A stretch of DNA of 64,000 bases from Candidatus Gottesmanbacteria bacterium (GTDB taxonomy: Bacteria > Patescibacteriota > Microgenomatia > UBA10105 > UBA927), in NCBI GenBank assembly GCA_030679255.1, contig JAUXTO010000013.1, positions 190,189 through 254,188 on the forward strand. Direction: 5' to 3'. Shown here one piece after another: positions 60,526-60,598 of the stretch. A program made the position numbers and the translations under genes. The first letter of the stretch is position 1. Each line of letters begins with the position of its first letter. Under the pieces are notes generated by a model. That model had not been told where the DNA came from. It saw only the letters and a list, made by a program, of their open reading frames with translations, and did not search any database.

Positions 60526-60598
60526 ATATCAGCTATCAGCTATCAGCTATCAGCTATCAGACGGTCTGATGACTGAAGACAAATAACTGATGTCTTAT

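Follow-up and report, generated by a model that had tools for sequence, protein, structure and literature searches.

The window analysed here (the whole 64,000-nt stretch of Candidatus Gottesmanbacteria DNA whose first lines stand above) contains a ribosomal alpha operon on its minus strand, with the genes map, infA, rpmJ, rpsM, rpsK, rpsD, rpoA, rplQ, rplM and rpsI. The homologues of its RpoA and GltX assign the window to Candidatus Gottesmanbacteria (Microgenomates, CPR). Two spacers of the alpha operon are filled by copies of one repeat-built element of about 65-73 nt, referred to as copy A and copy B (Table 1). The original prediction had placed the element at these same two junctions (rplQ/rpoA and rpmJ/infA); its reading direction has to be reversed, as the genes lie on the minus strand and the transcript of each copy therefore runs from the upstream stop codon through an arm of three to four UCAGUCn heptamers, the apex AUCAGAC-CG-GUCUGAU and an arm of (GAUAGCU)4 to the 1-3 nt that precede the AUG. 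On the plus strand, the element reads as a perfect (ATCAGCT/TATCAGC)x4.9 array, detected by TRF at 60527-60560 and 63219-63252, followed by ATCAGA-CGG-TCTGAT (60556-60570 and 63248-63262) and then by nGACTGA-type units. Copy A had been given a span of 60526-60590, of which the start stands, whereas the end has to be moved to 60598, with the copy filling the entire 73-nt spacer. Similarly, a clean right arm (TGACTGA CGACTGA AGACTGA) had been described, which applies to copy B (TGACTGA CGACTGA AGACTGA TGACTTA) but not to copy A, whose arm is degenerate (TGACTGA AGACAAA TAACTGA TGTCTTA). Both arrays point outward, the UAGCUGA units being read on the mRNA strand and the nGACUGA units on the opposite one. 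Direct reading of both copies shows that the UAG and UGA triplets of (GAUAGCU)n close all three forward frames. No GGAG-type motif is found between the array and the AUG in copy A or copy B, which is normal for this genome, since an SD-like tetramer precedes only 13 of 67 genes.

Table 1. Repeat features of the window, with positions counted from its first nucleotide.
Feature	Position	Strand	Description
Copy A	60526..60598	-	Whole 73-nt spacer from the rpoA stop codon (60599-60601) to the rplQ start codon (60523-60525)
Copy A, 3' arm (mRNA)	60527..60560	-	(GAUAGCU)x4.9 = (UAGCUGA)4, 3 nt 5' of the rplQ AUG; TRF period 7, 100% matches
Copy A, central tight hairpin	60556..60570	-	Apical stem AUCAGAC-CG-GUCUGAU
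Copy A, 5' arm (mRNA)	60571..60596	-	Degenerate UCAGUCn-type heptamers (…CAUCAGUUAUUUGUCUUCAGUC)
Copy B	63220..63286	-	Whole 67-nt spacer from the infA stop codon (63287-63289) to the rpmJ start codon (63217-63219)
Copy B, 3' arm (mRNA)	63220..63252	-	(GAUAGCU)x4.9; UAGCUGA register ends 1 nt 5' of the rpmJ AUG; TRF
Copy B, central tight hairpin	63248..63262	-	Same sequence as that of copy A
Copy B, 5' arm (mRNA)	63263..63286	-	GUCAUCA GUCUUCA GUCGUCA GUC, directly 3' of the infA stop codon; TRF period 7, 4.3 copies, 86%
rpmJ→rpsM spacer, different hairpin family	63024..63105	-	Arms of AAGUCC/GACUUUAUA-type tandem units; -21.2 kcal/mol, z -2.8 with context; spacer alone z -4.8
rpsD→rpoA spacer, different hairpin family	61520..61614	-	95-nt hairpin of CACAUGAU-type units; -34.7 kcal/mol, z -4.9
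cca, in-frame (AGTCGTC)4AG	27266-27295		Encodes SSVVSRQSSD in the head domain of the CCA-adding enzyme
recJ, two in-frame AATGMTG arrays	25992-26021 and 26385-26418		
gltX, 36-nt GC-rich hairpin, twice, in frame	17395-17470 and 18000-18064	+	CCTGCCCGCAATGCTACGCAAAGCGTTGCAGGCGGG, between native AAAGTC-type heptamers
MITE-like element	30741-30905		About 140 nt, with terminal inverted repeats of about 20 nt (CCAGGTAGTAGAAATTCGAC … GTCGAATTTTCACTACCTGG)

That a two-copy element occupies two spacers of the alpha operon, as originally proposed, is borne out by TRF, a 21-mer search and an independent assembly. A 21-mer of three units has only two sites in the 64-kb window, with 0.00 expected from shuffles. 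The independent Logan assembly L001 (SRR13727518) begins within the copy B array and ends within the copy A array, from which it follows that both copies are real; the assembly is broken at these points because the repeat is common to both. The copies have about 50 identical bases in common, which correspond to the apex and the array, while their outer 5' arms differ. The apex is non-repetitive (CAGUCAUCAGACCGUCUGA, or CAGTCATCAGACCGTCTGA in its 19-nt form). That each copy arose in situ, through heptamer slippage and fold-back template switching at each site and without any copying between sites, is very improbable. Such an origin would suit the self-complementary AGCT core, the head-to-head arrays seen in many phyla (among the matches listed) and the excess of heptamers in bacteria, which has been ascribed to slippage (PMC4692102); nevertheless, it is made implausible by the match of about 50 identical nt, including the apex, and by the equal unit number, and the same apex also recurs in one of the relatives (L123). 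This identity shows that the whole unit was duplicated once, from one junction of the operon to another that is not homologous to it. Replication slippage is the most likely process by which the perfect array of 4.9 units would have been kept uniform.

Folding of both copies confirmed the expectation that the element can form a long imperfect stem, with strong hairpins predicted on the transcribed strand in each case. When folded with its context, the mRNA strand of copy A reaches -30.6 kcal/mol (z -4.35) and that of copy B -31.8 kcal/mol (z -5.79), and none of 200 shuffles was as stable for either of them; the spacers alone give z values of -6.6 and -6.1, respectively. The antisense strands fold far more weakly (-18.9 kcal/mol for copy A and -23.0 kcal/mol for copy B), because the stem depends on G·U pairs. 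The predicted stem comprises about 27 bp in blocks of 5-6 bp, with a mismatch at every seventh nucleotide, and includes nearly all of the (GAUAGCU)4 array. Its base lies 0-3 nt 3' of the upstream stop codon on one side and 4-9 nt 5' of the downstream AUG on the other, and in the fold of copy A with context the rplQ AUG is itself paired to the last rpoA codons (GUGUA). The homologous copies (n = 4) contain two compensatory pairs, a sample too small for covariation.

The presence of a stable hairpin between genes could be taken as a sign of a transcription attenuator or terminator within the operon, an option that is scarcely credible here, as neither stem is followed by a U-tract (the tails read GAUAU-AUG and GAU-AUG), neither copy was called terminator-like, and a genuine terminator-like hairpin (63539-63521), conserved in relatives, was detected upstream of infA. 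The latter hairpin (63521-63539 on the minus strand) consists of CCCCAUAGUCGUAAUGGGG followed by a U-run, precedes the probable actual start of infA (63505), is kept between map and infA in the relatives L122, L124 and L126, and may be a real terminator or attenuator; just upstream of it stands (AUUUGUAG)x3 (63553-63579). As regards known RNA families, the Rfam 15 covariance models gave no gathering-score match in the window except tRNAs, and no match at E<=1 within 58900-64000. Elsewhere in the window, positions 37096-37511 of the plus strand hold a divergent bacterial RNase P RNA (full-length RF00010 match, 56.8 bits, E=2e-15), which was missed by the default Rfam scan because its score is below the gathering score of 100. 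A weak match resembling a T-box leader (23642-23810, minus strand, 34.7 bits, E=1e-4) is located upstream of an ORF with no Pfam hit (22495-23646), and two intergenic regions of about 840 nt (24457-25297 and 33178-34020) show significant predicted structure (z -3.7 and -3.3, respectively) while lacking a called gene and any convincing match to Rfam.

Repeats of related type occur throughout the window, both between and within genes. Two further spacers of the alpha operon, rpmJ→rpsM and rpsD→rpoA, carry hairpins of different families (Table 1), of which the former is found at rpsM→rpsK in L122, and a family related to the latter fills rpoA→rplQ in L168. The in-frame array of cca is built from the same heptamer as one of the 5'-arm units of the element (GUCGUCA). 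In gltX, each insertion of the 36-nt hairpin adds PARNATQSVAGG to the glutamyl-tRNA synthetase; the hairpin is absent from all nine of the closest homologues, and other lineages (P0128 and P0131) carry different insertions at the first of the two sites. The MITE-like element of about 140 nt is also present at rpoA→rplQ in L133, at rpmJ→rpsM in L203 and at map→infA in L122. Further palindromic repeats are found in other spacers of the window. Repeats related to the element are active at the DNA level across the genome, as shown by those of the 64-kb window. No transposase, RAYT, Y1 transposase or integrase was found among the genes of this window. Three candidate explanations were discarded: a terminator (for want of a U-tract), a known RNA family (no Rfam match at E<=1) and a linked transposase (none in the window). 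Other repeats of the window include a perfect palindrome, CATCACAAAATTATGCACGTGCATAATTTTGTGAT, two copies of which (12813-12993 and 13663-13726) flank a gene for a protein with a PaaX/Cas2-like domain (12994-13662), and another duplicated intercistronic repeat, of period 10, in the spacers 42868-42927 and 43678-43759. The latter have about 60 nt in common, including three copies of a 10-mer (TTTAAAGGAG on the plus strand, CTCCTTTAAA in the minus-strand transcript), after which comes a conserved tract that abuts the downstream start codon.

Nine operon genes were mapped on 87 loci, comprising the window and the loci of related genomes (designated here by L numbers), which gives eight junctions; the gene starts of the relatives, located with tblastn, carry a possible error of a few nucleotides. 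Spacer lengths over the 87 loci are bimodal at every junction, with a short class (median 5 nt) and a long class (median 85 nt) separated by a trough at 30-60 nt. Genomes with an RpoA identity of 60% or more contribute 79 distinct long spacers, of which 66 give a fold with z<-2, and their stems begin a median of 3 nt past the stop codon and finish a median of 8 nt ahead of the AUG. Internal short-period repetition is present in 55 of these 79 spacers, as against none of 22 coding controls, with period 7 being the commonest, followed by periods 8 and 9. Junctions are occupied at a frequency of 71-75% in the clade of the window and of about 20% in further relatives, several of the relatives having fully compact operons. 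In the S10-spc-alpha cluster of L123, 13 of 22 junctions have spacers of 40 nt or more, and colonisation therefore reaches well past the alpha-operon part.

At a given junction, orthologous sites may be empty, filled or replaced among related species. The infA→rpmJ junction is empty in L122, the closest relative by RpoA identity, where it reads just 'TAA gt ATG'; it holds a shorter version of the window's element in L123 and a ATCACAATGACCAA-type hairpin in L167. The rpoA→rplQ junction carries the family of the window's element in L122 and L126, and three other repeat-hairpin families in L123, L124 and L168. An empty junction ('TGA|ATG') also occurs in L131, and overall the element is absent or replaced at the same junction in L122, L167, L124, L168 and L131. 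Conversely, the same family may be found at different junctions in different genomes, and L123 presents one family at four junctions. The exact apex was found only in the window, L001 and L123 among the loci compared. The type of element is therefore constant, while the occupant of each junction is variable. An initial reading of these differences as rapid turnover between strains was withdrawn, as an RpoA identity of 97% goes along with a nucleotide identity of only 84-90% in these relatives; operon-gene nucleotide identity to the window reaches 84-90% at most, and they belong to different species. The case for turnover therefore relies on differences between species and on one same-species pair, L131 and L132 (see below). 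When the filled sites are compared with the empty one of L122 ('TAA gt ATG'), no clear target-site duplication emerges, the nearest empty site lying in a genome only about 87% identical in nucleotides.

These comparisons bear on a role of the element as a functional intercistronic RNA, that is, as a processing site for RNase III (or RNase Y) or as a REP-like stabiliser, which would give mRNA segments with different half-lives and rplQ and rpmJ mRNAs with short leaders. We consider such a role unlikely. The stem of about 27 bp is in principle long enough for RNase III, the sense folds exceed the antisense ones (-30.6 and -31.8 versus -18.9 and -23.0 kcal/mol), hairpins are present at 71-75% of the junctions of the clade and are identical in all near-identical pairs but one, RNase Y is encoded in the window, and the Correia/NEMIS hairpins of Neisseria offer a precedent for cleavage by RNase III. 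All of this would agree with RNA processing; however, the element is absent or replaced at the same junctions, some relatives have compact operons, and arrays of the same type lie within coding sequences. Moreover, the difference between strands is weak over families, with sense more stable than antisense in 48 of the 79 long spacers (p=0.09), and strand asymmetry was dropped as a general argument, being strong in this family but weak across families.

Direct evidence of how such hairpins are gained comes from a sister family. Loci L131 and L132 derive from two different metagenomes and represent the same species, with 98-100% nucleotide identity across the operon. At rpsK→rpsD, L132 has a 96-nt hairpin of the GTAACGAA family, where L131 has 'TAG t ATG'. 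Over the 993 nt of rpsK and rpsD, nine of the ten mismatches between both loci fall within 15 nt of this junction, and all nine are synonymous, leaving KKRRV* and MARYTG unchanged; a binomial estimate gives a probability of about 1e-13 for nine of ten mismatches to fall by chance within 28 positions out of 993. Because of this clustering, the L132 hairpin must have come with about 15 nt of diverged donor flank, and such a joint import of hairpin and flank implies homologous recombination at the orthologous junction. The gain thus looks recombinational and not transpositional, and a recombinational gain explains both the phylogenetically incongruent distribution of the families and the fact that one family may take the place of another. 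It may also be the reason why elements of this kind gather in operons whose flanks are highly conserved. In every other pair of near-identical genomes, the spacers are identical. Short-patch recombination is therefore shown for the GTAACGAA sister family and would extend to the element of the window, for which the only hint is the identity of the infA 3' end to that of the window, 90.0% in L123 versus 84.4% in L122.

Taken together, and with moderate confidence, we favour the view that the element is an insertion that spreads horizontally and is not essential, namely a small foldback hairpin with arms of TAACTGA-like heptamers that is tolerated because its fold keeps the stop and start codons close. 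Elements of this class would move among related genomes by short-patch homologous recombination via the conserved flanks provided by ribosomal genes. Once in place, the element would be co-transcribed within the operon mRNA and fold into the stem of about 27 bp, the base of which would hold the stop and start codons about as near to each other as in the ancestral compact arrangement 'TAA-n-ATG'. A ribosome ending the upstream gene would then open the base of the stem and expose the AUG, so that translational coupling of rplQ and rpmJ may be preserved in this SD-poor genome. The element would be tolerated and not required, any effects on mRNA stability or processing being secondary; such a secondary effect may exist. 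As a counterpoint, no mobility enzyme was found in the 64-kb window, no target-site duplication is evident against an empty site about 87% identical, and the recombination evidence comes from the sister family; the high occupancy in the clade, the identical spacers in the other near-identical pairs and the sense G·U bias also fit a selected RNA function. Of the two readings originally envisaged, a processing or attenuation signal is disfavoured as a dedicated and conserved feature of the alpha operon, given that the element is absent or replaced at the same junctions, has no terminator features, matches no Rfam family at E<=1 and resembles arrays found in genes, whereas a small mobile structured repeat fits the presence, absence and replacement at the same junctions as well as the L131/L132 polymorphism of the sister family.

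Beyond CPR, arrays of (GATAGCT)n with three or more units were found by a scan of genome contigs at no fewer than 120 loci in many phyla, the matches listed not including the genome from which the window derives, and the array alone is consequently not lineage-specific. Among the matches listed, about half of the (GATAGCT)n arrays are paired with an upstream inverse array, 27 of 115 lie inside open reading frames, and those within 40 nt of a start codon are more often directed toward it than in reverse (27 versus 12, p=0.024, for this unit only). Heptad-periodic hairpins a few nucleotides ahead of an AUG were encountered, again among the matches listed, in Acidobacteriota, Planctomycetota, Thermoanaerobaculia, Chloroflexota and cyanobacteria, mostly in 5' leaders. 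The idea that these cross-phylum hairpins are mainly intercistronic was checked and abandoned, since most of them are such leaders.

The position of the array also raises the question of whether it acts as a protein-binding translational module, in which (UAGCUGA)4 before the AUG would be read by S1, by an RRM or Csp-type protein or by the ribosome, and in which the partner arm would mask it conditionally. TAGCTGA is one substitution away from TAACTGA, whose repeats precede r-protein genes and replace SD sites (PMC4679880), and the array runs forward, with its end 3 nt from the AUG in copy A and 1 nt in copy B, in agreement with the modal position reported for those repeats. The bias of (GATAGCT)n toward start codons (27 toward versus 12 away, p=0.024, among the matches listed), the scarcity of SD sites in the genome and an RRM-domain protein encoded in the window point in the same direction. 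We nevertheless regard this module as distinctly improbable: the different families that occupy these junctions elsewhere are built of unrelated units, empty junctions work without any array, the array is nearly fully paired in the predicted fold, TAGCTGA never forms direct repeats in the Beggiatoa genome, and the orientation bias is modest, with 27 of 115 arrays lying in open reading frames among the matches listed. The RRM-domain gene (35573-36010, minus strand) encodes an RRM_1 RNA-binding protein of the cyanobacterial Rbp type; its tail is glycine-rich and repetitive, and the protein could conceivably bind repeat RNA in single-stranded form.

On a broader scale, heptad-periodic foldback hairpins with outward arrays of the T(A/G)(A/G)CTGA type could constitute a cross-phylum class of cis-elements, present in CPR, Acidobacteriota, Planctomycetota, Chloroflexota, Gemmatimonadota and Cyanobacteria. 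Their members would serve as modules for SD-independent initiation or coupling, or be recognised by a conserved factor, and would spread without a dedicated transposase via slippage, fold-back copying and homologous recombination through conserved flanks. This generalisation is speculative and, as a whole, quite unlikely; if true, it would account for the long-unexplained excess of heptamers in bacterial intergenic DNA.

Tandem heptamers in bacteria have been on record since 1990; they are present in statistical excess and, to our knowledge, have no accepted origin or function. To this picture, the present analysis adds a new form, in which heptamer arrays are paired as hairpins that bridge exactly from stop to start codon, and a new location, since they lie in the operon that is most conserved in the streamlined genomes of CPR bacteria. 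The presence or absence of such hairpins clearly varies, and in one case a gain through short-patch recombination is documented. Should the hairpin preserve translational coupling, this would explain why essential operons tolerate such insertions and would provide a simple design rule for RNA modules between cistrons. On the practical side, repeats held in common break metagenome assemblies within ribosomal operons, which matters for binning and for CPR phylogenies based on ribosomal proteins.

From the perspective of known repeat systems, the element can be compared with several groups, although it presents distinctive features with respect to each of them. The units of the heptamer repeats of Calothrix are CCCCAGT, TTGGTCA and CAACAGT. 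The TAACTGA direct repeats, reported from marine Beggiatoaceae, Cyanobacteria and Bacteroidetes (MacGregor 2015, PMC4679880), have their modal end about 1 nt before start codons and replace SD sites. They are found in r-protein operons and occasionally in frame within genes, are distributed patchily across phyla and have no known function; the sets are predicted to be unstructured, only one indirect repeat was found, and TAGCTGA is never a direct repeat in the Beggiatoa genome (PMC4679880). The element shares with them tandem units of 7 nt, its TAGCTGA being one substitution away, and an intergenic, forward array separated from the AUG by 3 nt in copy A and by 1 nt in copy B, with no SD in between; both contain stop codons in three forward frames, both lie within r-protein operons and now and then in frame inside genes, and both have a patchy distribution over phyla. 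In addition, the opposite arm of the element reads nGACTGA on the other strand, and TGACTGA is another single-base variant of TAACTGA. The element differs in its unit, which is TAGCTGA and not TAACTGA, in that its array pairs with an inverse partner array to form a stable hairpin (-30.6 to -31.8 kcal/mol), and in that it resides in a CPR host, fills gaps from stop to start codon and coexists with several unrelated unit families.

Within the wider group of heptameric repeats, which are over-represented in bacteria and have been ascribed to polymerase slippage, those of cyanobacteria and Xanthomonas (heptamer SSRs and STRR) are intergenic, vary in length and sequence among close relatives, are occasionally inverted and include an intercistronic case, pecE-pecF, while the units GGGAATC and GGGGAYT form G-quadruplexes (PMC4692102). 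The element resembles these repeats in being made of tandem heptamers in intergenic DNA that vary between relatives; it differs in its units, and neither a hairpin abutting a start codon nor an occupancy of operon junctions has been described for them. REP sequences and REPINs, in turn, are short extragenic palindromes that form hairpins, multi-copy and non-autonomous, with several families within a genome and compensatory changes in their stems, REPINs being inverted doublets of a conserved REP of the 16-mer type, linked to a RAYT gene (PMC3116915). The element is likewise non-coding and non-autonomous and forms hairpins in ssDNA or mRNA, with several families and compensatory stem changes, but its arms are tandem heptamers and not REP doublets, it has two copies only in 64 kb, and no RAYT is encoded in the window.

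With respect to mobile elements, MITEs of the Correia/NEMIS type are 100-155 bp long, have terminal inverted repeats of 26 bp and duplicate a TA target, and their hairpins are cleaved by RNase III in Neisseria. In common with these, which are polymorphic between strains, the element is a small inverted-repeat insert between genes that would be transcribed as a hairpin and varies in its presence; its two arms are inverse to each other but internally repetitive, no clear target duplication is seen against an empty site in a genome only about 87% identical, and its size is about 65-73 nt. Presence and absence at orthologous sites, by which MITEs are recognised, was found between species for the element itself and within a species for the sister family of L131 and L132. 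The foldback (FB) elements of Drosophila may serve as an analogy of architecture only, as their inverted arms are also made of short tandem repeats, although they are eukaryotic and of kilobase scale. Rickettsia palindromic elements (RPE), of 100-150 bp, find a parallel in the 36-nt hairpin of gltX, which is also palindromic, inserted in frame and not destructive to an essential gene, while the element under study is intercistronic and not intragenic. Finally, MIRU-like intercistronic repeats contain a small ORF that overlaps the flanking stop and start codons, in contrast to the array of the element, in which there is no ORF and all three frames are closed by UAG or UGA. The element fits no strict definition of TAACTGA repeats, heptamer SSRs or REPINs; the global picture is that, rather than a conserved regulatory RNA, it is a member of a poorly understood and fast-changing class of repeat-built insertions.
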